This document shows, one piece after another, positions 16,898-57,004 of a stretch of 64,000 nt of DNA. Location: positions 110,108 through 174,107 of IMG/VR virus record IMGVR_UViG_3300009158_000001; one strand, written 5' to 3'. Source of the DNA: a virus. The number at the start of each line of letters is the position of its first letter. The first letter of the stretch is position 1. A program made the position numbers and the translations under genes. The notes below the pieces were generated by a model. That model had not been told where the DNA came from, did no database searches, and saw only the letters and a program-made list of their open reading frames with translations.

Positions 16898-16912
16898 GGC
16901 TCCTGCGTCGCC
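16898..16912 (+). promoter_or_regulatory. Hairpin motif copy 1 (putative phage-RNAP promoter)
   Basis: GGC-TCCTGCGTC-GCC. Confidence 0.65.
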
Positions 16913-16970
16913 CAGAGCATTGTAGGCTTCGCTCCCTGGCAACAAAGCTAGACCAACGAGAGGTCTGGTG

Positions 16971-16987
16971 GGCCTCCTGCGTCGGCC
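16971..16987 (+). promoter_or_regulatory. Hairpin motif copy 2
   Basis: GGCC-TCCTGCGTC-GGCC. Confidence 0.65.
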
Positions 16988-16989
16988 AG

Positions 16990-17152
16990 ATATAGTGAGC
17001 GTTCACGCTTGCTATACTGGCGGATCCGTCCCAGTAGATGCGAGAGATAACGGATAGGTACCTCCCAAACGTCTACCTTGTCGGGTGTGGGAAGGCCGAA
17101 AACGCTGACAAGGAAAGAACCTCTGGCCTCACGGCTGGGGGTTCTTTTTTTT
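16990..17152 (+). ncRNA. Putative structured small RNA ending in an intrinsic terminator
   Basis: No credible ORF. Stems TATAGTGAGCG/CGCTTGCTATA and CCTTGTCGG/CTGACAAGG; terminator at 17115-17152. Confidence 0.45.
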
Positions 17153-17201
17153 CCACTCCGCTGAATAACCAGATAACTTGTGGCAACCAGGGGTCTTACG
17201 A

Positions 17202-17216
17202 GGCTCCTTCGTCGCC
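17202..17216 (+). promoter_or_regulatory. Hairpin motif copy 3
   Basis: GGC-TCCTTCGTC-GCC. Confidence 0.65.
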
Positions 17217-17219
17217 CAA

Positions 17220-17457
17220 AGCATCGGATGGTGGCTGCCGCTACCCGTATCAGAGAAGGCCTGTCGGTCTCTGGTATGTATCAGACAGGGGCGGTTGCCA
17301 GTCCGCCTAACAGAAAAACTGGCCGTCATCCCCTTTAGGATGGCATGTTTACGTCCCCTCTTGGACGGGTTCCTGGTAGTGGTAATCCTACTTACTGCGT
17401 ACCAGGATAGAGAGGTAAAGCCCCAGCACAGTAGGATGTGTTGGGGTTTTATTTTTG
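17220..17457 (+). ncRNA. Putative structured small RNA ending in an intrinsic terminator
   Basis: No SD-led ORF. Stems CCTGTC/GACAGG, GCCAGT/ACTGGC, GCCGTC/GATGGC, TCCTGGTA/TACCAGGA; terminator at 17417-17457. Confidence 0.45.
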
Positions 17458-17508
17458 TTACTCCGCTATATAAGTAGATTACTAGTAACTATATAGTGGT
17501 TTGTTGGC

Positions 17509-17523
17509 GGCTCCTACGTCGCC
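17509..17523 (+). promoter_or_regulatory. Hairpin motif copy 4
   Basis: GGC-TCCTACGTC-GCC. Confidence 0.65.
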
Positions 17524-17526
17524 CAA

Positions 17527-17674
17527 AGCACTGGGCGTTGACGCTCTGCCATCTCCGTTGGTAGAGACTAGCTTTAAAACACGGGGAGTCCCAGGTCGGC
17601 CTTACGGGCTTGGATAAGACTATTGGCAGAAGGACAGATTCCCACTACTAGGCCGGTAGTGGGTTTCTTTTTTT
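17527..17674 (+). ncRNA. Putative small RNA ending in an intrinsic terminator
   Basis: No SD-led ORF; terminator CCCACTAC/GTAGTGGG + T-tract at 17641-17674. Confidence 0.4.
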
Positions 17675-17692
17675 GGCCTCCTTCGTCGGCCA
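17674..17692 (+). promoter_or_regulatory. Hairpin motif copy 5
   Basis: TGGCC-TCCTTCGTC-GGCCA. Confidence 0.65.
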
Positions 17693-17736
17693 GAGATTAT
17701 GAGGCACTTTCGCCTCTCGGTCCTTAGGAGGACACC

Positions 17737-17949
17737 ATGAAGGCAGGTAAGTATCACTCGTACGACTGGCGAACCGAGCGGGATGCGGATGCTGATAGGA
17801 GCGTCTTCGTCCAGGCCTGGAAAGCCAAGTTCCCTGGGGTCGTGCCGCAGTTCGCCATCATCCTGGATGACGGCAGTTGCCACTGGTGGAACGAATGGCC
17901 AGACGGGCGGACTCGGCGGCTTCCGCCTAGCACATTCAAGATCGGCTAA
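17737..17949 (+). CDS. Hypothetical protein (70 aa)
   Basis: SD TAGGAGG; lies between motif copy 5 and a terminator. Confidence 0.75.
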   Translation: MKAGKYHSYDWRTERDADADRSVFVQAWKAKFPGVVPQFAIILDDGSCHWWNEWPDGRTRRLPPSTFKIG

Positions 17950-17955
17950 AGATAG

Positions 17956-17987
17956 ACCCTCGGCTTCGGTTGGGGGTTTTTCTTTTC
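17956..17987 (+). terminator. Intrinsic terminator with C-UUCG-G loop
   Basis: ACCCTCGGC-TTCG-GTTGGGGGT + T-tract. Confidence 0.8.
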
Positions 17988-18126
17988 TCACTCCGCTACA
18001 CAGTGGGGTGGCTCCAGCTCCCGGACTCTTCGGCGGTCAGCAGGTAGGAACCCAATAGCAAAAAGAGGCGAAAAAATATAGACTCCGCTATAGGCCGGAA
18101 AGGTTATATCAACTAGTAGTGTTGAG

Positions 18127-18141
18127 AGCTCCTGCGTCGCC
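18127..18141 (+). promoter_or_regulatory. Hairpin motif copy 6
   Basis: AGC-TCCTGCGTC-GCC. Confidence 0.6.
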
Positions 18142-18144
18142 TAA

Positions 18145-18408
18145 GTGTTGTGAGGTAATCGCGGACCTCTTAGTCATGTTCCAACCCTGGGGAGCATGAT
18201 GAGCCTAGTTAGACAAGGCAAAACGAACAAAGGGAGTAGGTGTCCATCCGCCGAAGTTAAGAGCACCTGTACGCGGGACTCGGGATGGAACTCATGTGCT
18301 GGATCTCCTAAGGAGGCACATGTTTAAACAGAAGAGGGGATGACCTGCGCATGTCACAAAACTGCCCCAATTTTAACCCTCTGGCTTCGGTCGGAGGGTT
18401 TTTCTTTT
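18145..18408 (+). ncRNA. Putative structured RNA ending in an intrinsic terminator
   Basis: Stems GAGGT/ACCTC, CATGTTCC/GGAGCATG, TCCATCC/GGATGGA; UUCG terminator at 18376-18408; only a 6-codon SD-led micro-ORF. Confidence 0.4.
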
Positions 18409-18426
18409 GGCCTCCTGCGTCGTCCA
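18408..18426 (+). promoter_or_regulatory. Hairpin motif copy 7
   Basis: TGGCC-TCCTGCGTC-GTCCA. Confidence 0.6.
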
Positions 18427-18466
18427 GAGAAAGTGGGCAACTTTCGCCCCAAACGGAGAAGAGAAC

Positions 18467-18646
18467 ATGCAGTACGATCTTACAGTGACACAAAGCCCCA
18501 GCGGACTCGTATACTTTCGGGTATACAGCAAAGAGACCGGTGATTGCAAGTGCATCCTGAGCATCGACCCCAAGGACGGGTCTCTCGAGGCGGCAACGGG
18601 TGACGAGGAGTTCACGGGCTACTCCATCGTTGGAGAACTCGTCTAA
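18467..18646 (+). CDS. Hypothetical protein (59 aa)
   Basis: SD GGAG before ATG 18467 (MQYDLTV...). Confidence 0.65.
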   Translation: MQYDLTVTQSPSGLVYFRVYSKETGDCKCILSIDPKDGSLEAATGDEEFTGYSIVGELV

Positions 18647-18650
18647 GAGA

Positions 18651-18680
18651 GACCCTGGCTTCGGCTGGGGTTTCTTTTTT
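18651..18680 (+). terminator. Intrinsic terminator with C-UUCG-G loop
   Basis: GACCCTGGC-TTCG-GCTGGGGTT + T-tract. Confidence 0.8.
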
Positions 18681-18682
18681 CA

Positions 18683-18697
18683 GGCTCCTTCGTCGCC
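18683..18697 (+). promoter_or_regulatory. Hairpin motif copy 8
   Basis: GGC-TCCTTCGTC-GCC. Confidence 0.65.
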
Positions 18698-18740
18698 CAA
18701 GGAAAATGGGTAATGTCACCCTTCCTTTACGGAGTCGAAG

Positions 18741-19145
18741 ATGAACAGTGTCAATTTTGTCGGGTTTCTTACTTCCACCCATAAGGAAGTGGGCGATGTC
18801 CTCTGTGTCGTCGTGAAGAGTGTCGATGGGAACAGTGCTCCCACTGTGCGTTTCACGGGCAAGCAGCGTGAGGCTCTCAAGAAGTGGGGCACCCCCGGAC
18901 GTCTTGTGAGCATCAGTGGCAGCTTCGGAACGGAGGTGAATGGCAAGGTGAAGGACTCCTTCATCGCCTGCGCCTACAGCCGTTTCTTGGACAAGCAGGA
19001 GACTGTGGCTAAGGCTGCTGCTCCTGTTGCGGCACCTGTCGTGGCTGCTGCACCTGTCAAGGCTGCAAAGGCTCCCAAGGCTGCAAAGGCCACAAAGGCT
19101 GCTCCTCCCGCGAATGTCGATCCTGACGACGTTCCGTGGGCGTAA
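18741..19145 (+). CDS. Divergent SSB-like OB-fold protein
   Basis: MNSVNFVGFLT start, GRLVSISGSF strand, Ala/Lys/Pro linker and acidic tail DPDDVPWA. Confidence 0.6.
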   Translation: MNSVNFVGFLTSTHKEVGDVLCVVVKSVDGNSAPTVRFTGKQREALKKWGTPGRLVSISGSFGTEVNGKVKDSFIACAYSRFLDKQETVAKAAAPVAAPVVAAAPVKAAKAPKAAKATKAAPPANVDPDDVPWA

Positions 19146-19147
19146 CT

Positions 19148-19180
19148 AACCCCTGGCTTCGGCTGGGGGTTCTTTTTCTT
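19148..19180 (+). terminator. Intrinsic terminator with C-UUCG-G loop
   Basis: AACCCCTGGC-TTCG-GCTGGGGGTT + T-tract. Confidence 0.8.
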
Positions 19181-19271
19181 GACTCCGCTATGGGCCGGTG
19201 CAGTTCCAGCTCCGAGACGTCTGGCGGCTGTCAGGGAGAAGACCATCATCAAAAAGAGGCGAAAATAAATG

Positions 19272-19286
19272 GGCTCCTGCGTCGCC
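19272..19286 (+). promoter_or_regulatory. Hairpin motif copy 9
   Basis: GGC-TCCTGCGTC-GCC. Confidence 0.65.
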
Positions 19287-19327
19287 TAGGTACAGTGAGG
19301 GTTTGTCCTCGTTGCCAGGAGTCTGTC

Positions 19328-19468
19328 ATGTTTGAGAAAGTGTCGCTTGAAGACTGTTACGGTATCGCTGTGGGTGGTGAGGACGAGATGATCGCCCGCA
19401 TCGACGAGGCCAATGAGTACGTGTACAACCACGATGAGTTGGATGACTTCGACTACAGCGAAGGTTGA
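19328..19468 (+). CDS. Small acidic protein (46 aa)
   Basis: AGGAGTCTGTC-ATG start; terminator at 19470-19498 follows. Confidence 0.65.
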   Translation: MFEKVSLEDCYGIAVGGEDEMIARIDEANEYVYNHDELDDFDYSEG

Positions 19469-19509
19469 AGAGATGGCCCGAAAGGGTCTTTTCTTTTCTA
19501 AGACAAAGG

Positions 19510-19526
19510 GGCCTCCTGCGTCGGCC
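19510..19526 (+). promoter_or_regulatory. Hairpin motif copy 10
   Basis: GGCC-TCCTGCGTC-GGCC. Confidence 0.65.
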
Positions 19527-19529
19527 ATA

Positions 19530-19970
19530 TGTCTTGAGTCTCGGCTCTACAGTTTACGGCGTCGAGTAGGTTACATTGCGAATAATAGGGGATGTAAACC
19601 CTATTGCTCGTACTGCAAGACGTCATCCTTTGAGAGTTTACTAGTAAAATCATAAGTGCGCCTGCCGCTTATGGGAACCTAGTGAGAGTCAGGGTTGCAA
19701 ACCTGGCTATAACAAATAGGCTGACTATTATGGGACCCTGCCCTGGTAGTTATATGAACATGGGGTGGTCTGCTGCAGCGGGCCTTTGATCAGTCGGGTG
19801 TTCGCTATACAGATACTGAACGGGTGACCACGCCCACAGTTGAGTGCAAGGCTCAGCAATTAGGATTCCTACGAGAAGGGTTCAATCCCCTTTTTCATCG
19901 GCCACATGCCATGTAGGGTTCAGTATCAGCGCAATGTATGGCTATGGGTTCGAGTCCCATATGATTGAAT
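19530..19970 (+). ncRNA. Putative ~440-nt multi-stem RNA or structured leader with two T-loop hairpins
   Basis: No SD-led ORF. Nested stems GTCTTG/CAAGAC, AATAGGG/CCCTATT, CATAAG/CTTATG, AGTCAG/CTGACT; T-loop-like GGTTCAATCC (19879) and GGTTCGAGTCC (19947). Confidence 0.45.
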
Positions 19971-19998
19971 TACTTTACACCGTCCTAAGGAGGACAAC

Positions 19999-20577
19999 AT
20001 GGATAAGAGCATGATCTTCAATTTCAATACCGTTGTCTTGTTTGCGACCGAGATCGCCAAGAGGATGAACTTCCTGGGATACGATACGACCTACAGCGTC
20101 TCTATGACCGAGTTCAGTGGCCCGACCATCTCGGCTGCCATCAGGGGCAACACCGAGAAAGAAGGGTGGTACATTGTGGAGCACGGGATGTTCCATGATG
20201 CGCACAAAGGCTTCGAGGTCAATTTCACGATTGGCCTCCCCAGCGCAGAGGGTGAGTACATCTCCGAGTGGGTGAAGGCCAAGATCAACAGGATCCGCCT
20301 CCGTGACTGCTTGGAGATCAACGAGACCCTGTACTCCGTTCCGACTCTGGAAGTTTACTCGGAGCGGTTTGGAGGGACGTATGCTTTCTACAGTGCAATC
20401 CCCACCTTGACGAAACACTTCGACTTCACGGTCAAGAACGTCAAGGGTGACATGGATGGCCTCATCGATCTGTTCTGGGGACAGAAGGGCCTCCTCAGCA
20501 AGATTGAAGACCCCGACTGTGCAATCGAAGAGTTCAACAACCTCCTGGTTGAGTTGGGCGATTCTGTCTCGTCCTAG
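19999..20577 (+). CDS. Hypothetical protein (192 aa)
   Basis: SD AAGGAGG; open frame. Confidence 0.8.
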   Translation: MDKSMIFNFNTVVLFATEIAKRMNFLGYDTTYSVSMTEFSGPTISAAIRGNTEKEGWYIVEHGMFHDAHKGFEVNFTIGLPSAEGEYISEWVKAKINRIRLRDCLEINETLYSVPTLEVYSERFGGTYAFYSAIPTLTKHFDFTVKNVKGDMDGLIDLFWGQKGLLSKIEDPDCAIEEFNNLLVELGDSVSS

Positions 20578-20732
20578 TAGTCCAATAGGTCCACAGCCTG
20601 CAACCTGCCCGTTGGTAGGCTAACCTATCAGATGTCATGTCTGGTAGCCACAAAGGCTGCATCACTTCCTTATGGTAATAGATAGGTTCGAATCCTATCA
20701 GGAAGACTTTACCCCCTTATATAGGTGACAAG

Positions 20733-20936
20733 ATGAAACATGTGCCCGGACATAGTTCGATGGATGAGCAGGCTATGGAGACTGTAATCTCTCATGGGAA
20801 GTTTCTTCTTGAGAGAGCAAATGCAGTACTACATTTATATCCCCAGCTCCAAGAGTATAGGGATGCACTGGTAGAGATGCAGAAGTATGCCGAGAAGGCA
20901 ATGGATAATGGACACTTCCCCGATTCCGACCTCTAA
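20733..20936 (+). CDS. Hypothetical protein
   Basis: SD AGGT; operon-like packing. Confidence 0.65.
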   Translation: MKHVPGHSSMDEQAMETVISHGKFLLERANAVLHLYPQLQEYRDALVEMQKYAEKAMDNGHFPDSDL

Positions 20937-20954
20937 CGTCCTTAGGAGGACACC

Positions 20955-21137
20955 ATGCGAATAAAGCATAACATTATCGTTACGTGGAAAGATTGTGACA
21001 AGGGGTGCTGCGAGGACTATAGGGTATTCCAGTTCTCTGGTAGTCCCGGACAGGCAATTAGGTTTTCCCAAGAGGTAGCAAAACTTCATCCTACTACATT
21101 CCGTATTAGGATCTATCAATACGACAACGAGGAATAA
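20955..21137 (+). CDS. Hypothetical protein
   Basis: SD TAGGAGG. Confidence 0.7.
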   Translation: MRIKHNIIVTWKDCDKGCCEDYRVFQFSGSPGQAIRFSQEVAKLHPTTFRIRIYQYDNEE

Positions 21138-21139
21138 TC

Positions 21140-21598
21140 ATGAATATGAATACCGTTGAGGATATGCACAAGATCTTGAGAATCCTGGATGCCGAAGTAG
21201 CAAAGAGGAAGATTCCTTTTGATGTGATTCCAGAGAGAACAGCGGCGGAGTATCGTGCCCTGGCCGAAGACCATGAAGAGTATGTTGCTCTTCTTGCAAG
21301 AGAGAGGAAGGTAATCAATGCCTACTTCAATGCCGTTCAGATGCAGGAGTGGGCACAGAACCACAAGCGCTGGATACAGACGGGATTGAACGGTTATACT
21401 ACCCATGAGTTGAGCCCTGTTGGCAAAGAGACCCTGAACAGATACCTCAACAAAGTAGTTGAGGAAATCTGGTGGGATGCCAATGAGGACCGTCTTGTGA
21501 CAGAATTCGAAAGTTCCCGCCAGTACCTCGGCGATGATGATCGCAACTTTGAGTGGTACATCAACAGGGAATATGAAACTTACCTTCAAACCCTCTAA
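21140..21598 (+). CDS. Hypothetical protein (152 aa)
   Basis: SD GAGG; adjacent to the previous stop. Confidence 0.75.
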   Translation: MNMNTVEDMHKILRILDAEVAKRKIPFDVIPERTAAEYRALAEDHEEYVALLARERKVINAYFNAVQMQEWAQNHKRWIQTGLNGYTTHELSPVGKETLNRYLNKVVEEIWWDANEDRLVTEFESSRQYLGDDDRNFEWYINREYETYLQTL

Positions 21599-21609
21599 CA
21601 GGAAAAACA

Positions 21610-21783
21610 ATGAAAATGATACCTGTTGATCTTTGGATGAACTTTGATGGATGGCTAGACGAAAACTACGATCTTCTTGATAAGGAGTTCGTTGAGATCT
21701 ATGGAAAGGATGGATCAAGTAAAGACTTTGGCCAGTTCGCTGCAAGTAAACACAATGAATACTGTGAATCCCTTAAGAAGTAA
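21610..21783 (+). CDS. Hypothetical protein (57 aa)
   Basis: Read by hand (MKMIPVDLW...); SD AGGA; fills the gap between neighbours. Confidence 0.6.
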   Translation: MKMIPVDLWMNFDGWLDENYDLLDKEFVEIYGKDGSSKDFGQFAASKHNEYCESLKK

Positions 21784-21793
21784 GAGGTGTACT

Positions 21794-21958
21794 GTGAATA
21801 AGTTTATCAATGTGACTGTCCGCGTTCCTACGTCCAACATCGTAATCAGTGAGTCTCATGACGACATTGATACTGCGATGTGTAGGGGAGAAATTCTGTC
21901 TAAGGCCTTGGGCGGTTCTTGGACTATGACCTTCAATGCTAACCAGGTCAAGATCTAA
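21794..21958 (+). CDS. Hypothetical protein
   Basis: SD GAGGT + GTG start. Confidence 0.55.
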   Translation: MNKFINVTVRVPTSNIVISESHDDIDTAMCRGEILSKALGGSWTMTFNANQVKI

Positions 21959-22024
21959 TGGTCTGGTATACTTGGCAATTTCGTTTCTTCCTTGCCTTTT
22001 GGCAACTTTACCTGTGAGGTTATA

Positions 22025-22418
22025 ATGCACGAAATTAAGATTGATGATCATGTTGTCCAGCTCAATAACTGGCAGTTCGGTACTTTGTTCTTCTTTTGTT
22101 TGTCGGGGCTTGGCGCTCTCTCCATGGTTCTCATGGTTATCATCGACATCATCCGTTGGAGTATGCAATGAAGATTACATTCAATGTTAACGAGTCCTTC
22201 GCTGAGGTTCATAGCCTTGGCTTCGCAACAACTTGCCTTCTTTTTGCCAGTCTCATCTCTGGCATCTCTTACTGGATCATCGCAGCAGTGATGTTCTTTG
22301 ATTCCAGTTACGTATAGGACATATAATGAAGATGACGTTTCTGTATATCCTGGCAATCACCTTACTTATTACTGTGATCAAGATCATTCAGATCCTTGAT
22401 CCTACTTACTGGAGTTAG
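22025..22418 (+). CDS. Three tiny membrane-peptide genes (22025-22171, 22168-22317, 22326-22418)
   Basis: Hand-read hydrophobic ORFs of 48, 49 and 30 aa with SDs and an ATGA overlap. Confidence 0.5.
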
Positions 22419-22420
22419 TC

Positions 22421-22585
22421 ATGAGCAAGACAAAGAAGTTTGAAAAGGTTCCCCGCCGTGATGTCGCCGCAATGACGCTTGCTTGCGGTGGTTTCAAGAA
22501 CGGTAACCATGGAGATCCCCGCAAGGAGGAATCCAAGAATGGTTGCCGCAAGTTCAAGTTCAACAACAATTCCTCGGAGGAATAG
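22421..22585 (+). CDS. Small basic protein (54 aa)
   Basis: SD GGAG; MSKTKKFEK... Confidence 0.55.
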   Translation: MSKTKKFEKVPRRDVAAMTLACGGFKNGNHGDPRKEESKNGCRKFKFNNNSSEE

Positions 22586-22867
22586 ATGTACGAGACAAAG
22601 AGTCTGATCATTGATGGGTTCCGTCACCTTACTTACGTTAGCCTTACCGCTAGCACACGTGATGGTCGAAAGGAACAACTTCGAGAGTACCGGACAGCAT
22701 TCAATTTGCTTCAGGATACCGCTCCTCTTTGGGATGAACACTTTGACATCAAAGAAGGATCCCGGAAGGCGCGTTACCGTATGGACTATCTCGAAAAGCA
22801 CTTCGAGAATCTTGAGTGTATCATCCTTGTAGCAGAGGCAATCGCCCGCGCTGAAAACATCAAGTAG
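22586..22867 (+). CDS. Hypothetical protein
   Basis: SD GGAGG. Confidence 0.7.
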   Translation: MYETKSLIIDGFRHLTYVSLTASTRDGRKEQLREYRTAFNLLQDTAPLWDEHFDIKEGSRKARYRMDYLEKHFENLECIILVAEAIARAENIK

Positions 22868-22876
22868 GAGAAGAAC

Positions 22877-23062
22877 ATGGAAAACGTAGATCCTATGGAC
22901 AATGTCGACTCGCGCCTCTTTCAAATCAACTACCGAAACGCCGAAAACATTGCCTACCTAGTAGCAATGCTGGAAACAGTCTGGGGAGTTGACCGTATCA
23001 ATACACTAATGCTTGCTGTGCGGGACATTCGTATCAGTCAAGAAAACCACCAGGAGATCTAA
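22877..23062 (+). CDS. Hypothetical protein
   Basis: SD AGGAG. Confidence 0.7.
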   Translation: MENVDPMDNVDSRLFQINYRNAENIAYLVAMLETVWGVDRINTLMLAVRDIRISQENHQEI

Positions 23063-23214
23063 TGAGAAGCATCCTTATGAGTACTGTATCCTTTACTATG
23101 GAGCATATCAATGGAACTGCAAACATTGTAGTCCCTGTGTGGTTTGTGTTTCTCTATACTGCGGCTAGTTTGATCTGGCCAGCCATTGCTATCTTGGCCC
23201 TCGTAAATAGAGGG

Positions 23215-23233
23215 TAGCCTCCTTCGTCGGCTA
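23215..23233 (+). promoter_or_regulatory. Hairpin motif copy 11
   Basis: TAGCC-TCCTTCGTC-GGCTA. Confidence 0.65.
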
Positions 23234-23409
23234 GTTCTTCCCTATTGGAGAGTAAACCTAAGATAGAGAAAACAATGATCAATGAAATCAAACAACTTCT
23301 ATTAGGAGCCGCAGGTCTCGCAGGTGCATTTCTTATAGTGCTTCTGTGCTTTGAAGTCTTGATCGCAATCAAAGACATCGCAATAGTTATGATTAACTAG
23401 ATAAAGGAG

Positions 23410-23428
23410 TAGCCTCCTGCGTCGGCTA
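23410..23428 (+). promoter_or_regulatory. Hairpin motif copy 12
   Basis: TAGCC-TCCTGCGTC-GGCTA. Confidence 0.65.
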
Positions 23429-23493
23429 GATGTCGTGCTATTGTGTCCTATTCAATAAGTTTCCTTCGATAAGAAGGGTAAGTGAGAGTTGTC

Positions 23494-23955
23494 ATGAAAG
23501 ATAAGAATCGTGTTGAACTTCGTGGTCGTCTTGGTGCAGATCCTATTCTCTCTACTACGGAGACCGGACGTAGTCGGACTAGCCTTCGTCTCTGTACTAA
23601 TTACGAGTATAAGACTGCTGATGGTACGGAAGTAAAGAACTCCGAGTGGCACACTATCGTTGTCTGGGGTAAGGCTGCCGAGAACGCAGTCAAGTACCTG
23701 TCAAAGGGTAGTGAAGCAGAGGTCGAGGGTCGTCTTCAGTCCCGTAAGTACACGGACAAGGCGGGAGTTGAGCGTTACACTACGGAGATCGTGGCGAACG
23801 AGATCAACTATGGTCGTCGTCCTACTGCTAAGACTGCAGAGGAAGCGGCCCCAGCTGCTCAGGCCAGTCCTGTTCAGCGTACTACGGTTCGTCGCCGAGA
23901 GAATGAGGTTACTGCTTCTAGTAACTTTCAGTCTGATGACGAGATTCCGTTCTAG
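23494..23955 (+). CDS. ssb: Single-stranded DNA-binding protein
   Basis: NRVELRGRLGADP, EWHTIVVWGKAAE, KGSEAEVEGRLQSRKYTDK, YTTEI, C-terminal DDEIPF. Confidence 0.95.
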   Translation: MKDKNRVELRGRLGADPILSTTETGRSRTSLRLCTNYEYKTADGTEVKNSEWHTIVVWGKAAENAVKYLSKGSEAEVEGRLQSRKYTDKAGVERYTTEIVANEINYGRRPTAKTAEEAAPAAQASPVQRTTVRRRENEVTASSNFQSDDEIPF

Positions 23956-23983
23956 TCAACTACTAGGGTAAAACCTAGGCTGC

Positions 23984-24058
23984 GTGCCCGTAGCACAGTT
24001 GGATAGTTGCAACGGCCTTCTAAGCCGTAGGTCACTGGTTCAAGTCCAGTCGGGCACA
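23984..24058 (+). tRNA. tRNA-Arg(TCT)
   Basis: Acceptor GTGCCCG/CGGGCAC; anticodon arm ACGGC-CTTCTAA-GCCGT; T-loop TTCAAGT. Confidence 0.92.
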
Positions 24059-24103
24059 CTTTCCCCAAACGCTCTATATTCTAGAGTACAACATGAGAGG
24101 TAT

Positions 24104-24418
24104 ATGATGAGTGATGTTTTGACCGCGAGTGGTGTGATTCGAGTTGGTTCTTCTAACCCTGCAGTTCCTACTGTAGCACGAGTTCGTACAGAGGCTGGGT
24201 CCTTTGTCGTAACCCGTTGCAAGATGGGTGGTGATGATATCGAGGTATGGAGCAATGGGGAGATTGGTGCCGAGGGATTCACCTTGGGCTTCAAGAACCT
24301 TCCTCTATTTCTAAAGCGACACAAGAAGGATGCGACGGGTAAGCCGCTTCATCCAGGTTATCGCGCTATTCAGATTCACGCACCTAATGCAGGTGCATTC
24401 TATCGAGTGGAGGGTTAA
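24104..24418 (+). CDS. Hypothetical protein
   Basis: SD GAGAGG after the tRNA. Confidence 0.7.
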   Translation: MMSDVLTASGVIRVGSSNPAVPTVARVRTEAGSFVVTRCKMGGDDIEVWSNGEIGAEGFTLGFKNLPLFLKRHKKDATGKPLHPGYRAIQIHAPNAGAFYRVEG

Positions 24419-24421
24419 GTT

Positions 24422-24796
24422 ATGGCTGAAGGAGCAGTTGAGGCAGGAGTTATGGCAAAGGCGGCAAGCGCTGGCATGGCAGGTGCCCTGTGGGGTATCT
24501 TCGCTAGTGCCTTCCTTGTCATTCCAGCAATCTTTGGTTCGCTATTCGCACCAGCGCTAAAGAAGACTCATTCGACTATCACACGAAAGTTGGATGAGAC
24601 TAAGGTTGGGCAAGGCAAAACCACAGTACAGATGGCAGGCAAGAAGATGAGTAAGGTAGAGCGTGAACATCAGGCTCGTCTTGCTGAGATTAATGCCGAC
24701 CTTGAGGAGCAGAAGTTGCGTCAGGAACTGGCACGACTTTCTTCTCGTCGGAAGACAAAGAGCAGCGGACGTAACGCTAGCGCCCAGTCTATCTAA
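24422..24796 (+). CDS. Membrane protein with coiled-coil tail
   Basis: Hydrophobic residues 20-45; SD GGAGGG; terminator at 24800-24833. Confidence 0.7.
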   Translation: MAEGAVEAGVMAKAASAGMAGALWGIFASAFLVIPAIFGSLFAPALKKTHSTITRKLDETKVGQGKTTVQMAGKKMSKVEREHQARLAEINADLEEQKLRQELARLSSRRKTKSSGRNASAQSI

Positions 24797-25199
24797 AGAA
24801 GACCCTCATCGCAAGATGGGGGTTTTTTCTTTTCCAAATCAGGGAGATCAGGGAGGCCGGTGCTTCAATAGACCGGTAACAGGATTCCAGCTCCCAGCTC
24901 CGTTCCGAGACCAGGGCAAGGACAAGAGTTACTAGCCAAAAAGAGTCGAGAGATTAACAGTCAAAAAGATAAAACTTTACTAGAAATAAAATGGACAAAA
25001 AGAGTCCAGAGTTACGAAGGCAGCTTTTACCCTATAGGGGTATATACAGTATATAGTATAGAGGTATATAGACTGGTCAAAAAGAGTCGAGAGAATAGCT
25101 TTATATGGCTTTTGGCATATAGGGGTATATAGAGGTATAAGACGGGCTTACGCGAGGACAAGGTATATTGGTATAGTTTGTAGGAGCGGGGTAGGTATA

Positions 25200-25292
25200 G
25201 CAGGGAATATGCAGGGAATCTGCAGGGAATATGCAGGGAATCTGCAAGGTATAACGCAGGGTTTGCAGGGAATATGCAGGGAACTAGCAGGT
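25200..25292. repeat. Tandem ~11-bp GCAGGGAAT(A/C)T repeats (iteron-like)
   Basis: Four tandem 11-mers followed by degenerate copies, inside a 670-bp non-coding gap. Confidence 0.85.
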
Positions 25293-25377
25293 CATAGCAT
25301 AGTCTAATACTGTATCCTCTATATACTCTTATATGCTTTATGCTATTTACTCTTTAAAACACTAGTTTATTTTAGGC

Positions 25378-25394
25378 GGCCTCCTGCGTCGGCT
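25378..25394 (+). promoter_or_regulatory. Hairpin motif copy 13
   Basis: GGCC-TCCTGCGTC-GGCT. Confidence 0.65.
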
Positions 25395-25464
25395 AAATTG
25401 CTTGTATTTACTTTTTGATCTTGTTTACGAAGATCTTTAACTAATCTTTAATGGAGACTTACCT

Positions 25465-26865
25465 ATGTATGACTTTAATGCGTTTGTTGAGGATAAGCAC
25501 TACCTGTGGACTAATATGATTGATCGTCTTGATATCAAGATGAAGAATATGCCGCCCAGAGTCAGTAGCAAGTCAAAAGACGGAGCTCGTAGACTAAGTA
25601 ATAAGTATCACTATATTAAGCCTATGATGTCCCGTCATTCGTCTCTTATTAACTTGGTTGCCAAGTTGGGCTACTGGCATAAGAATATTGACGATAGACT
25701 TGATGCTGCTATCAGCACTATCTCTGCTTGCTATCAGACTACTGAGATGAGTAAGGGTCGTCGTGCCCTTCCTAGGGAGTCTAATGATCTTGTTGATCTT
25801 ACTTGGGCTCTTAAGGATCTTCATAATGCTAAGGGATCCTGGGAAAAGTTCACTGTAAAGCGCGCTTTTAACCATGGGTATTCCTGCTTAAAGTATACTG
25901 ATAGACGGCTAGTTCTTAATAAGATTCCCCAGTCTATTAGGACTATAAAGGCTTGGGATTCTGTTACAGTTTGGCCTACTGGCAGTATTGATGACGATAC
26001 TACTTTGTCTCTAATTCAGAATCATCCTGTTAATGCAGAATTCATTCAAGCTTACAAGTACCGTACCTTTAGTAATCGGCGGCTTAGTTGGTTCCATTCT
26101 GGTCTTGCTGCAGAGTATGTCCAGCTGATTCCTATTAATCATGCTGAACGTACTAGTAGTGATACTCTTCCTAAGCTACTCGCTGAGATTGATAAGAACC
26201 AGGCTACTCTTTATACAAAGATGAGCCGAGTTAATGACGTTAAGATTCTTGATGGCTGGGTAAAGGCTATGAAGGATCTTCATCCTGTTAATGTTGGTAC
26301 TGGTCTTGCAGAGGCTGTAGAGAAGTTTATCAAGGATGGATACCGTATGGGCCTTCCTGGTCTTCGAGCCAGAGATGAGCGTCTTAGTGCTATTGATTAC
26401 GAGAATATGAGTGTTCTTGAAATGATCAATGCTAGTGTTAATAATCATAGAATTGCGGCGGAACAGAATCGTCTTGCCTTGCTTAAGTATGATGTTAATG
26501 TTCCTGACCGTGAGATGCCTACTCTTACTTTGCCTGAGCATCTTGAGACGATTCGGATCAAGACCTCTAATGAAATGAGAATTGCTGGCAGTGACTGTGC
26601 ACACTGTATTGGCAGCTACTATGATGATAGGAGCCATATGTTTTTCCGTAAAGGAAATGTATGTGCTATGGTCAGCATGACTAATGGTCAGATTATTCAG
26701 TGCTTTGACCGGAATAATAAGAGCACTCCAGCTAGTAAGAACTTCTCTTCTTATCTCAACGCTGAGATTAAGAAGGCTAAGTTGGAATATCCTGCTCCTG
26801 CTCCGAAGAAAGTTAAATTTGCTATTCCTGCATATGGTTACGAAATGATTGATCCACCCTACTAA
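25465..26865 (+). CDS. Protein with C-terminal PcfJ-like domain
   Basis: EMRIAGSDCAHCIGSYY...IIQCFDRNN resembles PcfJ (EG..mhHCV.sY...i.Q..g..N). Confidence 0.55.
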   Translation: MYDFNAFVEDKHYLWTNMIDRLDIKMKNMPPRVSSKSKDGARRLSNKYHYIKPMMSRHSSLINLVAKLGYWHKNIDDRLDAAISTISACYQTTEMSKGRRALPRESNDLVDLTWALKDLHNAKGSWEKFTVKRAFNHGYSCLKYTDRRLVLNKIPQSIRTIKAWDSVTVWPTGSIDDDTTLSLIQNHPVNAEFIQAYKYRTFSNRRLSWFHSGLAAEYVQLIPINHAERTSSDTLPKLLAEIDKNQATLYTKMSRVNDVKILDGWVKAMKDLHPVNVGTGLAEAVEKFIKDGYRMGLPGLRARDERLSAIDYENMSVLEMINASVNNHRIAAEQNRLALLKYDVNVPDREMPTLTLPEHLETIRIKTSNEMRIAGSDCAHCIGSYYDDRSHMFFRKGNVCAMVSMTNGQIIQCFDRNNKSTPASKNFSSYLNAEIKKAKLEYPAPAPKKVKFAIPAYGYEMIDPPY

Positions 26866-33590: not shown

Positions 33591-33605
33591 GCCTCCTGCG
33601 TCGGC
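33591..33605 (+). promoter_or_regulatory. Hairpin motif copy 14
   Basis: GCC-TCCTGCGTC-GGC. Confidence 0.65.
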
Positions 33606-46067: not shown

Positions 46068-47129
46068 ATGCAGTTTGCTAATTCTCGTGAGATTGATACA
46101 GTAGATGTAGTCGTTGGACTTGCTTGGGGTGACGAAGGCAAAGGCAAGGTCGTTAGTTCATTGGTTAATTACCAGCACTATGACTTTGTCTGTCGCTTTA
46201 ACGGCGGCCCTAATGCAGGTCATACTGTTTACTTGGATGGTAAGCAGTACAAGACTCATCTTATTCCTAGTGGTGTATTCCATGGCGTTCCTAGCATTAT
46301 CGGTCCTGCTTGCGTAATTAACGTTAGCAAGTTCATGGCAGAGATTGCCTATCTAGAAGCTAATGGGTTTGATACAAGTCTTGTTAAGGTTTCACCTAAG
46401 GCTCATGTAATTACTCAGGATCACATTAGCTATGACACTAATTATCTTTCGCATCTTGGTACTACCGGACAAGGTATTGCTCCATGTTACTCGGACAAAA
46501 TGTTGCGTAAAGGAATTCGTGCAGCTGAAATCCTTGATCCTAAGTGGATCTGGGATGAAAAACTTTTTGGTTGTATCCTAGCCGAAGGAGCGCAGAGTGT
46601 TTGGCTAGATATCGACCATGGATCATACCCCTACGTTACTAGTAGTTCTACTTTGCCTTATAATGCTTGTTCACTAGGCTTCTCGCCTATGGACATTACT
46701 CGTATTATTGGCATTGGTAAGATGTACGACACTAAGAGCGGCGCTGATCCTATGTTCCCTATTAGCCTAATGGAAGATCCAGTTCTTGCTGAGATTGGCA
46801 GAATTGGCAAGGAGCAAGGTACTACGACCGGACGTCAAAGAATTATTAATTATCTTAATCTTGATAAAATGATTGCTGCAATTCGCTTGTCTGGTGTTAC
46901 TTGCGTTGTACTTAATAAGGGTGACATTCTAACTAAGATAGAAGAAGGTAACCCATTCAAGTTCCGCTACCGTGACGAACTTGTTACATGTAAAACACTC
47001 AAAGAAATGCAGACTACTATTGCAGAGATCATCGAGGGCGAATGCTCTAATCTTCTTGAGGAAGATGTTATTTTCTCTGATCATCCAGAATTTGTTAATT
47101 GGGAGGACTACTTTGCATGGCAGAGCTAG
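46068..47129 (+). CDS. purA: Adenylosuccinate synthetase
   Basis: WGDEGKGK, GGPNAGHT, HLIPSG, GTTGQGI, EGAQ, YPYVTSS, GTTTGR.R. Confidence 0.92.
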   Translation: MQFANSREIDTVDVVVGLAWGDEGKGKVVSSLVNYQHYDFVCRFNGGPNAGHTVYLDGKQYKTHLIPSGVFHGVPSIIGPACVINVSKFMAEIAYLEANGFDTSLVKVSPKAHVITQDHISYDTNYLSHLGTTGQGIAPCYSDKMLRKGIRAAEILDPKWIWDEKLFGCILAEGAQSVWLDIDHGSYPYVTSSSTLPYNACSLGFSPMDITRIIGIGKMYDTKSGADPMFPISLMEDPVLAEIGRIGKEQGTTTGRQRIINYLNLDKMIAAIRLSGVTCVVLNKGDILTKIEEGNPFKFRYRDELVTCKTLKEMQTTIAEIIEGECSNLLEEDVIFSDHPEFVNWEDYFAWQS

Positions 47130-53705: not shown

Positions 53706-53707
53706 TT

Positions 53708-54223
53708 ATGTCTGACTACAAATACAATGGTTTACATTTAATTTATGATGCTGGCGCAAAGTCAGTACCATCAACCGATAGATTAAATCCTCTTAATGAT
53801 CCTAGTATGGGTCATAAAGTTGTATCAGCCCTTGTAGATGCTATAGACATGACATTAATTGTTCCTCCACTTACTATAGAATTCCCACATAACAAGTGTG
53901 AACTTGAGCGAGTCCTTCAGCGTTTAGATGCTGAGGGTCTTGCTGACTCTGCCACTGCTCAGTTTATTGCAAATGCTCTGAGAGAGCGTGCTGAACAAAC
54001 ATATGGATATAGTACAATTGCAATGATTGCAGAATCGCATATTGCATTTCATACATTCCCTGAGCAAGGCTTTGTCACAGCAGATGTTTACTCTTGTAAA
54101 GATTTTGATGCAAAGCTTGTTGAAGAAATATTTGACAGGATGTTCTTTCCTGGAAAACAAGATATTGAGAAGAGTGTTCATATGGTCCGTAGAACTTTGG
54201 ACCTGTCTCGTTTCGCGGAGTAA
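53708..54223 (+). CDS. speD: S-adenosylmethionine decarboxylase proenzyme
   Basis: GLHLIYD, IAESHIAFHTFPE, DVYSC. Confidence 0.85.
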   Translation: MSDYKYNGLHLIYDAGAKSVPSTDRLNPLNDPSMGHKVVSALVDAIDMTLIVPPLTIEFPHNKCELERVLQRLDAEGLADSATAQFIANALRERAEQTYGYSTIAMIAESHIAFHTFPEQGFVTADVYSCKDFDAKLVEEIFDRMFFPGKQDIEKSVHMVRRTLDLSRFAE

Positions 54224-54225
54224 AA

Positions 54226-55299
54226 ATGTTTTTTAAGTTTGAGGATGCGGTAGCTGCTAATTATCAGCTTACCTATGATGACGTTTTGCTTAATCAAGCG
54301 CCAGTGTCCGACATTAATAGCCGATATGGAGCTAATATTAATCCATATCATAGGAATGAAAATGGTTACTATCAGAAACCTTTTGATGCTTTGCCAATTG
54401 TTGCTAGTCCTATGCCAAGCATTGCTTGTCATGCCTTTATGGATGCAATTACTGACTCCAGCTATAAGCCATTTGCTATCTTCGCTGATAGGTTCAGGCC
54501 TGAACATGAGCTAGATGAAATGTATATGCGAGGCTGTGGCATTAGCATTGGCCTTGACTATCCTATCGATAAGCTACTTCACAAAGTAAGCGAGTATGAA
54601 ATTGCGCATGTCTTAGTTGACATTGCTAATGGTAATCTTGATAGTCTCTATGATTATCTAATCAAGCTTCAAGATCTTCGCTTTGACGAAGGTGTCTTTA
54701 TCTGGGCCGGTAACGTAACAAATGAGCTTGCTTATAGCCGCATTGCTAGTCTGTGTGACTATGTTCGTGTCGGCATTGGCGGAGGTAGTGCATGTACTAC
54801 TCGTATTAATACAGGAGTGGGCGCTGGTAATGTTACTACCCTAGCTCGTTGTAGTGCAGAACGTAAGCGTTTGCTTTATACTTATCCTAAGGATGTAGCT
54901 GCACCTGCTTATATTGTTGCTGACGGCGGAATTCGTAATAACGGTGACGTTTGCAAGGCTCTAGCGTCAGGCGCTGATCTTGTAATGCTTGGCAAGATGC
55001 TTGCTGCTACTACAGAAAGTGCTGCCACTCCAGTAATCAATGAAGCAACTGGAATCTGGTACAAAGAGTATGCAGGTCTAGCTAGCTCCTCTTACAACAA
55101 TAAGAGCAGCATTGAGGGTCAATCTGGTCTTATTCCTATGGGTGAGCCTGTTACCTCCATGCTTAAGGGTCTAGAGGGGAATTTACGGAGTGCTATGAGC
55201 TATACCAATAGTCATACGCTTGCGGAATTCCAAAGTGCGACAAAGCTTATTTGTTCTCCTACTATTACAACTGAAAATAACACTTCACTAGTGAGATAA
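54226..55299 (+). CDS. GMP reductase / IMP dehydrogenase family
   Basis: LTYDDVLL, DIANG, AGNV, VGIGGGSACTTR, ADGGI, GADLVMLG, LRSAMSY. Confidence 0.9.
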   Translation: MFFKFEDAVAANYQLTYDDVLLNQAPVSDINSRYGANINPYHRNENGYYQKPFDALPIVASPMPSIACHAFMDAITDSSYKPFAIFADRFRPEHELDEMYMRGCGISIGLDYPIDKLLHKVSEYEIAHVLVDIANGNLDSLYDYLIKLQDLRFDEGVFIWAGNVTNELAYSRIASLCDYVRVGIGGGSACTTRINTGVGAGNVTTLARCSAERKRLLYTYPKDVAAPAYIVADGGIRNNGDVCKALASGADLVMLGKMLAATTESAATPVINEATGIWYKEYAGLASSSYNNKSSIEGQSGLIPMGEPVTSMLKGLEGNLRSAMSYTNSHTLAEFQSATKLICSPTITTENNTSLVR

Positions 55300-55301
55300 A
55301 A

Positions 55302-55760
55302 ATGGAAGAAGATTTTGATATCAATGCATTTATTGATGAACATGCAGACGAAGATCTTGATACATTATCAATCTTTATCCCTGATGAGCTAAAGGTTGAG
55401 AGTGATGAAGAGGAAGAAGATCTTGGTAAGTACCAACATGAAGAGTTACATAGGTCTACTCTAAGTCTAGTAGCAGCTGTTCATCTTACAGAAGATCGTA
55501 TCACTAGAGATGCTGCTATTGCTGTCTATCCTACGACTAATCCAAAGCAAGAGACTTTATCTTATATTGGTAGCTGGTTTGATTACTATACTGCTGACGA
55601 TAAGAAGTACTGTAATGAAGTTAATCTTTATTTAGAGATTACTGATCTTTCAGACTGGTCTCTTGGTCAAGTTGATATTCTTCAATTTGATTCCCTTAAA
55701 GATTCTAAGCATAGGAATGATCGTAAGATTTATTCTGCACTAATTAACCGAATTCTATAA
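55302..55760 (+). CDS. Acidic hypothetical protein
   Basis: Open frame, operon packing. Confidence 0.7.
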   Translation: MEEDFDINAFIDEHADEDLDTLSIFIPDELKVESDEEEEDLGKYQHEELHRSTLSLVAAVHLTEDRITRDAAIAVYPTTNPKQETLSYIGSWFDYYTADDKKYCNEVNLYLEITDLSDWSLGQVDILQFDSLKDSKHRNDRKIYSALINRIL

Positions 55761-56296
55761 TGCCTAACATCTTTAGCTTATTTAAGTTTAAAGATAAATT
55801 TGGAACTGATATAGAAGAAAAAGTTAAATATAACTTAATAGCTGACAAGCCAACAAGCTTAGTCGGCTATTATTGTTTTGCTTATCTTCATAGTTTAATA
55901 TCTACAGTAGGTACTAACTTTCCCACTGGGTCTTTTGCTGTTACAGAAAAAGATATTAAGAATGTTCATAGAACAATGAATGACTTTGGCATTCTTGGTA
56001 TATATGAATTTTCTTATTTGCCCATTGTTTGTCATTATCTCTGGCGAGATAAGCTTGCTGAACTTCGAGCTAAAAATAAAAAACAAAGATTCCTTATCTT
56101 ATTTGATAAGCAAAGCAAACATTTTGTTTTCTTTTGGTTAAGTTTTAGTTTTAGAAAAGCTAGAGTAAAGCCTAGTTTTCAAGTACTATCTTTAGACACA
56201 CTTAAAAAAGATATTGCAACTGCCAATGCTTGTCAGACTGATAACGCTTTGGGCATTATTAAAGAAGGAAACCTTTTACTTTCGGCTATCGAATGA
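55760..56296 (+). CDS. Hypothetical protein
   Basis: TAATG overlap with the previous gene. Confidence 0.7.
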   Translation: MPNIFSLFKFKDKFGTDIEEKVKYNLIADKPTSLVGYYCFAYLHSLISTVGTNFPTGSFAVTEKDIKNVHRTMNDFGILGIYEFSYLPIVCHYLWRDKLAELRAKNKKQRFLILFDKQSKHFVFFWLSFSFRKARVKPSFQVLSLDTLKKDIATANACQTDNALGIIKEGNLLLSAIE

Positions 56297-56946
56297 TTTT
56301 TAATAAAGAAGTTTTTAATTCATTAATTAATAAACCTACAATTAAAGAATGTGTGAAGTGCGACGCCTTATGTGCGAGTAGAACACAGGTTGTAGTTGAC
56401 AAGTATACTAAGTCTACTGTTGCACCTTGGGAAGAAAAGACTTTGCCTATTATGATTATTGGCGAAGCTCCCGGTGAGACAGAAGATAAAGTTGGTATGC
56501 CATTCATGGGCGTTAGCGGCAAGGTCTTGGACCAATACCTATTAACCCATGAGCTACAATCTTATAGCTACATTACTAATATAGTTAAGTGTAGACCCGA
56601 GAAGAATCGGACTCCAACTACAGAAGAGATTAAGAATTGCGCGCCCTATTTAGAGCAGCAAATTAAAGCTCTTGCTCCTAAGGTAATTATTACTCTTGGT
56701 AAAAGTGCTATGGCTGGTCTTCAGACTATAGGTGAGATAGTCAATCCTAAAACAATTGACTGGAAAAATTCAGAGGTTTCTTCATATTTTAACTTTCAAG
56801 ATATTTGCTACCCAGTTATTCCGATTTATCATCCTAGCTATTACTTAAGACAGAAAAATGCTTTGACGCAAGACCAATGGGCTGCGTTTGAGTCTAATTA
56901 TAATGCTAAATTTTTAAAGATTAAATCTTATATTTCCTATTCTTAA
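56293..56946 (+). CDS. Uracil-DNA glycosylase, family 4
   Basis: CVKC..LC..R, IGEAPG, PFMG.SG, TNIVKCRP, HPSY. Confidence 0.92.
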   Translation: MIFNKEVFNSLINKPTIKECVKCDALCASRTQVVVDKYTKSTVAPWEEKTLPIMIIGEAPGETEDKVGMPFMGVSGKVLDQYLLTHELQSYSYITNIVKCRPEKNRTPTTEEIKNCAPYLEQQIKALAPKVIITLGKSAMAGLQTIGEIVNPKTIDWKNSEVSSYFNFQDICYPVIPIYHPSYYLRQKNALTQDQWAAFESNYNAKFLKIKSYISYS

Positions 56947-56987
56947 ATATATAATGTCTCATTCTACGATTACTTTGTCTCTGAAAT

Positions 56988-57004
56988 GGCCTCCTACGTC
57001 GGCT
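56988..57004 (+). promoter_or_regulatory. Hairpin motif copy 15
   Basis: GGCC-TCCTACGTC-GGCT. Confidence 0.65.

Follow-up and report, generated by a model that had tools for sequence, protein, structure and literature searches.

The closest described precedent for the element analysed here is the promoter of the N4 virion RNA polymerase (RNAP), which reads a hairpin in the template strand and requires the 5' G and 3' A of the loop together with its closing pair; the single-stranded DNA-binding protein (SSB) keeps the template hairpin and melts the other strand (PMC4496689). In DNA, GNA triloops closed by C:G are exceptionally stable, and ordinary models miss the stability of such mini-hairpins (PMC13037366). 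For enzymes of the two-barrel fold, gp66 of phi14:2 is a large virion-packaged protein with a strong preference for single-stranded DNA (ssDNA) templates, and its early transcripts share no common upstream motif (10.1101/2020.03.07.982082); the promoter of YonO is undetermined (PMC5467207). We describe here a repeated motif with self-complementary flanks that lies downstream of a predicted two-barrel RNAP gene in an uncultured lake phage (IMG/VR record IMGVR_UViG_3300009158_000001; 174,107 bp, with terminal repeats and rated 100% complete). The stretch analysed, hereafter the window, is the final 64 kb of this record, and positions are those of the window unless given as genome positions. An earlier note on this DNA had read the motif as a set of N4-like hairpin promoters for the neighbouring RNAP, and we favor, with moderate confidence, the interpretation that it is a DNA-hairpin promoter of the phage's own two-barrel enzyme.

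The core of the motif, TCCTNCGTC, occurs 19 times in the window, always on the + strand, where 1.0 occurrence is expected, and none of 100 shuffled sequences reaches this count. Complementary flanks of 3-5 nucleotides (nt) enclose 15 of the 19, and these stemmed copies are all intergenic, on the + strand and downstream of the 3763-aa gene that encodes the RNAP (Table 1). They are the 15 copies listed in the earlier note, whose figures are stem starts, and its description of them as co-oriented, placed at or between gene boundaries and lying downstream of the RNAP gene holds for each one. The four remaining copies (2308, 9897, 21826 and 36313) lack a flanking stem and fall within coding frames, the one at 2308 being kept as coding sequence in a relative, L013; they are best treated as chance or coding matches outside the motif family. 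A genome-wide search yielded zero further stemmed copies in the rest of the 174,107-bp genome, with both strands scanned and one core mismatch allowed, and stemmed copies are confined to the window. Aligning 31 and then 48 sites gives the consensus (R)GSC-TCCTNCGTC-GSC-Y-A-R-A-T, followed by 4-5 free bases and TG(R)G, with less than 0.5 bit of information upstream of position -4. The minus strand reads stem-GA-C-GNA-G-GA-stem, as the earlier note had it.

The 48 aligned sites come from six genomes, and they confirm that the flank covariation noticed earlier is real: 93% of stem cells pair, four of the five pairs carry compensatory changes, and none of 500 shuffles reaches either the pairing or the covariation score. 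The pair adjoining the core is CG in 47 sites and UA in one. At the second pair, CG (26 sites) and GC (18) exchange, with a C.T mismatch in four sites and G-G or C-C never seen, and the third is GC in 39, AU in three, GU in three and CG in one. Compensatory changes also separate orthologues, as in the copy with its core at 17679, which has GGCC/GGCC where L001 at 6765 has GGCT/AGCC, and in the copy at 25382, whose orthologue in L013 (25891) has an altered stem, GCCC/GGGC, around a variant core. Between these changing flanks the 9-nt core is invariant in 45 of the 48 sites. A GNA loop closed by C:G can be read on the template strand, from sequence alone, in 45 of the 48 and also in three more divergent relatives, L017, L018 and L019.

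Five relatives have this core too, always downstream of the RNAP gene and in the gene's orientation. L001, L002, L005 and L006, whose RNAPs are 53-55% identical to that of the window, carry 8, 8, 10 and 1 copies, and L013, a 149-kb contig with an RNAP only 32% identical and synteny kept, carries four canonical copies. In L017, L018 and L019 (RNAPs 27-30% identical), other repeated words occupy the same place. The word in L018, present in five copies, is GGCT-CGCTGCGCTC-GCCT, which resolves to GGC-TC-G-C-TGC-G-C-TC-GCC; this is the hairpin of the window with one symmetric G-C pair added and the TC/TC mismatches retained, and on the template it gives the canonical mini-hairpin GCGCAGC. In L019 the word is GTCCGC-CTTCG-GCGGAC, found six to seven times and forming a perfect stem of 7 bp; in L017 it is AGCCCGC-CTTCG-GCGTGCT, found five times and containing a single C.T mismatch. 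In both, two substitutions relative to the motif of the window make both TC/TC mismatches Watson-Crick. The C-TNC-G triloop center, which is C-GNA-G on the template, is kept in all three spellings. The hairpin shape is conserved and its spelling tracks the RNAP lineage, as would be expected of a signal that depends on structure and co-evolves with its reader. Together with the pairing of the flanks, these re-spellings by lineage show that intrastrand pairing is under selection.

This last point is where the best-surviving alternative falls short. The phage RNAP could instead read the motif as duplex sequence, in the manner of T7-type promoters, with the inverted flanks a by-product and no hairpin formed. 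The invariance of the core in 45 of 48 sites, across RNAPs only 32% identical, would suit such a reader, as would the conserved downstream sequence, the small predicted hairpin energies and the T7-like placement of all sites downstream of, and co-oriented with, the RNAP gene. However, a duplex reader leaves unexplained why one stem pair is split between GC and CG (18 to 26) and never becomes G-G or C-C, why a symmetric pair is inserted in L018, and why mismatches turn into Watson-Crick pairs in L017 and L019. We consider a duplex-read promoter improbable.

The identification of the RNAP rests on a fold search, because sequence searches gave no RNAP match: PDB searches with the RNAP region, by single sequence and by profile, returned a marginal HIRAN match or chance matches only, tblastn of the region against 50,697 phage records gave no match, and PHROGs gave nothing for the RNAP. 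An AlphaFold 2 (AF2) model of residues 2400-3200 of the product, P0001 (predicted local distance difference test 79, predicted template modeling score 0.70), matched QDE-1 and RDR2 in Foldseek (probability 1.00) together with RNAPs of the P23-45 family; gp66 of the crAss-like phage phi14:2 was a weak match (E 0.07). VIA-align, which is independent of Foldseek, placed maize RDR2 first (Z 12.9; 504 aligned residues, root-mean-square deviation 6.3), followed by QDE-1 (12.6), P74-26 gp62 (10.9) and P23-45 gp96 (10.2), with a gap to 6.8 thereafter. These comparisons support the assignment of the C-terminal third of P0001 to the two-barrel (double-psi beta-barrel) RNAPs and bear out the enzyme class given in the earlier note. 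A HMMER scan of 1.8 billion representative proteins with residues 2330-3330 retrieved 19 relatives, among which RxP, G-D-x-DD and S..DA..KG are invariant, and the domain is presumably catalytically competent. No second member of this family and no multisubunit RNAP domains were found in the genome, which leaves this as the one RNAP-like gene identified.

The RNAP domain is fused to other modules. The N-terminal ~2300 residues (5162-12000) contain hydrophobic segments, two GDSGG serine-protease-like motifs and a long Lys/Arg/Ala-rich region, and the Pfam Trypsin match in this part is weak (E 0.004). At the C-terminus is a HIRAN domain, a family that binds ssDNA 3' ends; the HIRAN fusion recurs in homologues P0004, P0005 and P0007. 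Homologues in the relatives are shorter (1535-2771 aa) and are fused instead to other modules (YpsA, PIF1 helicase). In genome coordinates, the minus arm (25.3-114.9 kb) carries the portal, capsid and other large structural genes. The plus arm opens with the 3763-aa gene and runs through the window and across the record ends, past which lie genes for ribonucleotide reductase, DNA polymerase, a sigma-70-family factor and a primase-helicase.

Behind the giant gene, the motif copies head a series of cassettes built to one design: a strong terminator, the motif, ~10 nt, a covarying stem-loop, a ribosome-binding site, a small open reading frame (ORF) or none, and another terminator. The motif begins 0-6 nt past a T-run at the copies with cores at 17679, 18413, 18686, 25382 and 33594, and seven copies in the window and relatives together do so; the earlier note's remark that several copies sit right after a terminator is correct for strong + strand terminators. 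For 34 of the 42 sites from the window and close relatives, pairing in the predicted leader fold begins 19-22 nt after the first core base, at a conserved G, and the ATG lies 52-59 nt past the first core base in 14 sites. This anatomy of terminators, leader fold and ATG spacing assigns the motif to the unit downstream of it and not to the gene upstream. The motif is not itself an intrinsic terminator, as it is followed by Y-A-R-A-T and not by a T-run; the phage's RNA terminators use C-TTCG-G tetraloops, and the versions of the motif are always triloops. Longer units, among them the SSB gene and genes for 466-aa and 657-aa proteins, are headed by another five copies, whose stems are of the (T)AGCC/GGCTA type. 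SSB genes are retained in the early regions of the relatives.

Two other conserved words bear on how the motif should be read. One, ACTCCGCT, sits after terminator T-runs and/or 47-52 nt upstream of the hairpin motif. In the form (A)CTCCGCT it occurs 8 times in the window against 1.4 expected and 34 times on the + strand of the early regions of five genomes, and it was noted in the window and in L001, L002, L005, L006, L013, L017, L018 and L019. It has a C-TNC-G center with N = C, the base that the hairpin motif of the window does not use, and reads GC-GGA-GT on the minus strand. An upstream promoter element, a second start signal and a stop signal are all candidates for its role. The other word is AT-rich and precedes the RNAP gene in cassettes of L001, L002, L017 and L018; it consists of TTACTTAAATAGTAC, a short spacer, TATGGG(C/T)TAA, 4-5 bases and (A)TGG, and one partial copy lies at 16812 in the window. 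The AT-rich and hairpin motifs stand at matching distances from the RNA hairpin, the ribosome-binding site and the ATG, and the GG(C/T)TAA...TGG part of the former is shared with the right half of the latter. Because these interchangeable upstream modules precede identical leaders, we argue that both are promoters, the hairpin motif being the positional equivalent of the AT-rich one. In these four relatives the RNAP gene lies behind the AT-rich cassettes and the hairpin class follows it, which suggests two promoter classes and a T7-like order.

The same gene order bears on how the enzyme reaches the cell. In the window, as in L005, L013 and L014, the RNAP gene abuts the structural arm, and this position, together with the ~2300-aa fusion of GDSGG, hydrophobic and basic regions, suits a packaged and ejected protein. 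The T7-like order in the other four relatives weakens the assumption of an injected enzyme. Injection is implied by the N4-like framing and the proposed test of the earlier note, although the inference stated there names just the phage's own RNAP; we regard injection of the RNAP with the DNA as about evenly balanced.

Since covariation is a classic mark of RNA structure, the motif might alternatively work as RNA, within the 5' leader of transcripts that read through or start further upstream, serving as a processing site or as a regulator's site for stability or translation. G.U-compatible pairs are present on the + strand, the ribosome-binding site and ATG follow at a fixed distance, and the true start could be marked by ACTCCGCT, which lies 47-52 nt ahead of many copies. 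Yet about one third of the copies have no ACTCCGCT nearby, and several start directly past the T-run of a strong terminator (0-6 nt). Folded as RNA, the element would have a stem of 3 bp, tandem U.C mismatches and a triloop of no special kind, unlike the UUCG tetraloops found in the phage's RNA hairpins. The AT-rich motif, which is no hairpin, takes the same position in relatives, and Rfam gives no family. An RNA element seems to us unlikely, a little more so than a duplex promoter.

A sigma-70-family gene (Sigma70_r2, E 7e-21) lies outside the window at genome 14502-15614 (+), and it raises the question of whether host RNAP with this factor reads the motif. Extracytoplasmic function (ECF)-type -10 elements are often CGTC, and the CGTC within the motif resembles one. 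The motif has no bipartite -35/-10 arrangement with 16-18 nt between the parts, though: no -35-like block appears (less than 0.5 bit upstream of -4), and cassette heads carry no consensus sites. The sigma gene is far downstream among replication genes with no motif copy nearby, and a sigma promoter would account neither for the stem covariation nor for a hairpin spelling that varies with RNAP lineage. We think this very unlikely; the factor is a likely reader of late promoters on the structural arm. The remaining idea, a DNA signal other than a transcription start (primase or replication initiation site, recombination hotspot or repressor operator), recalls the GNA mini-hairpins at ssDNA replication origins (PMC13037366), but is the least credible of all given that all 48 copies are oriented with genes and fixed to a ribosome-binding site and ATG, that copies cluster in the early region instead of being spaced along the genome, and that the core is asymmetric, unlike dimer operators.

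That the motif is a promoter of some kind is thus likely, and we return to the hairpin promoter of the two-barrel RNAP as the preferred version. The RNAP domain (residues ~2400-3200) would use the motif to drive ten short early cassettes at 16.9-19.6 kb, which specify small proteins and structured non-coding RNAs, and, as far as 57 kb, five longer units with genes for SSB, nucleotide metabolism and repair. The signal would be directional and ~35 nt long, comprising a GSC/GSC stem (often 4-5 bp) around TCCTNCGTC, then Y-A-R-A-T and, ~13 nt beyond the core, a conserved TG(R)G. The probable start of transcription is the G of TG(R)G or a base next to it, because the covarying RNA hairpin begins exactly at that G. 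The element would, by our inference, function as a DNA hairpin that is extruded or melted; its template strand can form GSC-GA-C-GNA-G-GA-GSC, with the GNA triloop and its C:G closure stacked on tandem G.A pairs. Negative supercoiling and the phage SSB, encoded behind one copy, would aid extrusion. More generally, we propose tentatively, at slightly less than even confidence, that RNAPs of this two-barrel family (QDE-1/YonO/crAss-like fold) read extruded template-strand hairpins with a GNA triloop, C:G closure and tandem sheared G.A pairs, helped by SSB and perhaps by HIRAN.

The template strand would be the folding strand by analogy with N4. As RNA or as + strand DNA, the element has tandem pyrimidine mismatches and an unremarkable loop, and the stem irregularities C.T/T.C and A.C on the + strand become G.A and G.T on the template; + strand G.T, which becomes template C.A, is also present. 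Several observations weigh against the hairpin promoter or its assignment to this enzyme. With DNA parameters, ViennaRNA predicts a 3-5-bp stem with a 9-nt loop at -1.1 to -4 kcal/mol, equal for the two strands, and wobbles in the outer stem (+ strand G.T in 15 cells versus A.C in ~7) do not favor the template. Besides its canonical copies, L013 carries TCCTTTGTC with a stem at three sites, where the loop on the template is AAA and not GNA. Fifteen copies spread over 40 kb also differ from N4, which has three at the injected end. On the enzyme side, the candidate catalytic loop is GGDDDD (13421-13438) where the canonical form is DxDGD; its D-x-D-D is invariant in 15 homologues, with the canonical Gly absent. 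The T7-like RNAP family PF00940 has no match in the genome, but control genomes were likewise silent, and the sigma-70-family factor could read some promoters. Of the structure-read promoter put forward in the earlier note, the enzyme fold, the promoter anatomy and the association with the RNAP family have held up, while wobbles and mismatches pick no strand. Its N4-like framing suits the hairpin anatomy and the GNA loop and fails for the enzyme, since the adjacent RNAP is two-barrel and not T7-like.

Table 1. Coordinates of the motif copies, the polymerase gene and associated features (window positions unless a relative is named; core start, first base of the core).
Feature	Position	Strand	Core start	Remarks
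P0001, 3763-aa multidomain gene	5162..16453	+		from ORF list, translation and Pfam
Two-barrel RNAP domain	12359..14761	+		residues ~2400-3200, C-terminal third of P0001; AlphaFold model
HIRAN domain (PF08797)	16019..16240	+		residues 3620-3693; Pfam E 3.5e-8; C-terminus of RNAP protein
Motif copy 1	16898..16912	+	16901	GGC-TCCTGCGTC-GCC
Motif copy 2	16971..16987	+	16975	heads non-coding cassette ending at terminator 17125-17143
Motif copy 3	17202..17216	+	17205	head of non-coding cassette; motif and leader almost base-for-base in L005
Motif copy 4	17509..17523	+	17512	head of non-coding cassette; cassette terminator 17641-17663
Motif copy 5	17674..17692	+	17679	abuts terminator T-run; core start to ATG 58 nt (70-aa ORF)
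Motif copy 6	18127..18141	+	18130	AGC/GCC stem: A.C on + strand, G.T on - strand
Motif copy 7	18408..18426	+	18413	directly after terminator 18375-18400; core start to ATG 54 nt
Motif copy 8	18683..18697	+	18686	directly after terminator; core start to ATG 55 nt (134-aa ORF)
Motif copy 9	19272..19286	+	19275	core start to ATG 53 nt
Motif copy 10	19510..19526	+	19514	after terminator 19475-19488; leader acagtttacggcg kept in L001, L002 and L013
Motif copy 11	23215..23233	+	23220	TAGCC/GGCTA stem
Motif copy 12	23410..23428	+	23415	core start 67 nt before SSB gene start
Motif copy 13	25378..25394	+	25382	core start to ATG of 466-aa gene 83 nt
Motif copy 14	33591..33605	+	33594	intergenic
Motif copy 15	56988..57004	+	56992	core start to ATG of 657-aa gene 47 nt
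SSB gene (PF00436)	23482-23952	+		Pfam E 5.2e-28; only SSB match in genome; first gene behind copy 12
Second conserved word ACTCCGCT	16832, 16840, 17155, 17460, 17990, 18082, 19182 (span 16832..19189)	+		seven copies
AT-rich promoter-like motif	L002 60-2575; L001 155-1140 and 6178-6230; L017 1772-4150; L018 997-7630			

Several of the units from motif to terminator are poor in ORFs and rich in stems (16975-17150, 17205-17457, 17512-17663 and 18130-18400). The motif and leader of the cassettes at 17205 and 17512 recur almost base-for-base in L005, whose RNAP is 55% identical. Rfam over 16400-26000 placed tRNA-Arg alone above threshold, and gave no family for the non-coding cassettes, whose products are probably early non-coding RNAs of high abundance. 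Sequencing runs matching 16700-19800 were DNA only, from lake and freshwater metagenomes, with no RNA run among them. One early cassette encodes a 134-aa protein (18741-19142, +) whose linker is rich in Ala, Pro and Lys and whose acidic C-terminal end, DPDDVPW, resembles the tails of SSBs; the protein was suspected to be an SSB, and Pfam gave no match.

Just upstream of copy 13, the non-coding stretch 25049-25330 holds several copies of CTCTATATAC and CTGTATATAC on both strands, possibly an origin or a regulator-binding array. Between the structural arm and the RNAP gene lies an AT-rich divergent region (4812-5162), in which repeats rich in TATATA accompany a conserved block, ...ggaaaagagtgggtac...agcccaccccct. 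The region is kept in distant relatives (L017 1-540; L014 ~8400-8830) and is a candidate late-promoter region, origin or packaging site. A candidate late-promoter word, CTCTATATA, compared upstream of the RNAP gene and in the structural block, showed no clear genome-wide pattern. Further along the window, 46068-47126 (+) encodes a short (353-aa) adenylosuccinate-synthetase homologue that is below the NCBIfam PurA cut-off; it was considered as PurZ and rejected, with 95.6 bits against a cut-off of 300. Nearby are genes for a spore-photoproduct lyase, UvdE, an ATP-dependent ligase and a GMP-reductase-like protein. If the phage did modify adenine, this would bear on G.A pairing in the hairpin.

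How single-chain two-barrel RNAPs find their promoters is largely open, and the present motif is sharply defined, with at least 48 natural variants and four lineage spellings. One homologue, P0003, is 1535 aa long and small enough to express, which makes the question tractable in vitro. If the hairpin promoter is real, an unrelated enzyme has convergently reinvented the N4 strategy, and the motif would be the first defined structure-specific promoter in this polymerase superfamily; structure-specific promoter recognition would have evolved twice, in T7-like and in two-barrel enzymes, each time using the same unusual chemistry in the DNA loop. The finding would further inform how the related eukaryotic polymerases of RNA interference engage ssDNA, and a compact promoter paired with a single-chain polymerase could serve as an orthogonal expression tool. 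A literature search found no hairpin promoter for two-barrel enzymes and no HIRAN-fused phage RNAP, in line with the earlier note's statement that such a pairing was not known to be described.

Set beside the described systems, the motif is most like N4 promoters P1-P3, which are read by gp50, the virion RNAP of Schitoviridae. Both are small GC-rich inverted repeats just upstream of a start (here inferred), both have a template triloop 5'-G-N-A with C:G closure and a sheared G:A pair (PMC4496689; here by sequence), and in both any stem base that is not conserved may vary provided that pairing is kept. SSB takes part in N4, and an SSB gene stands behind one copy here. They differ in the polymerase, a T7-like single-subunit enzyme in N4 and a two-barrel fold here, in the number and spread of copies given above, in the conserved tandem TC/TC mismatches (template GA/GA) of the present stem, and in the distance of the start from the loop center, 11 nt in N4 and an inferred ~18 nt here. 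The d(GCGNAGC) mini-hairpins of Hirao and colleagues share the template C-GNA-G of all lineages, and L018 matches them exactly (PMC13037366); in the present genome there is one C:G closing pair, and the next two positions are G.A/A.G, not G:C. The layout is that of T7, with promoter copies co-oriented and downstream of the RNAP gene, but T7 promoters are 23-bp duplexes without an inverted repeat and serve another enzyme family.

Among two-barrel enzymes, phi14:2 gp66 and SPbeta YonO belong to the same fold superfamily as the present RNAP; compared with gp66, itself a weak structural match, the present system has a sharp motif. Thermus phage P23-45 is closer, as it also has single-chain two-barrel RNAPs with their own promoter motifs before early genes, an AT-rich motif for the virion RNAP gp96 and a GC-rich one for the non-virion RNAP gp64, and gp96 itself and relatives of gp64 are among the best structural matches (Z 10.2-10.9). 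Its motifs are linear, however, with no hairpin mentioned in the P23-45 paper, and sequence identity is ~12%. Taken together, these comparisons make the motif a counterpart of the N4 early promoters in its presumed mode of action and place it outside their family, because the defining link to a T7-like polymerase fails. It is best read as a hairpin promoter class for a rare clade of phage two-barrel RNAPs, enzymes for which only P23-45 offers defined, and linear, motifs.

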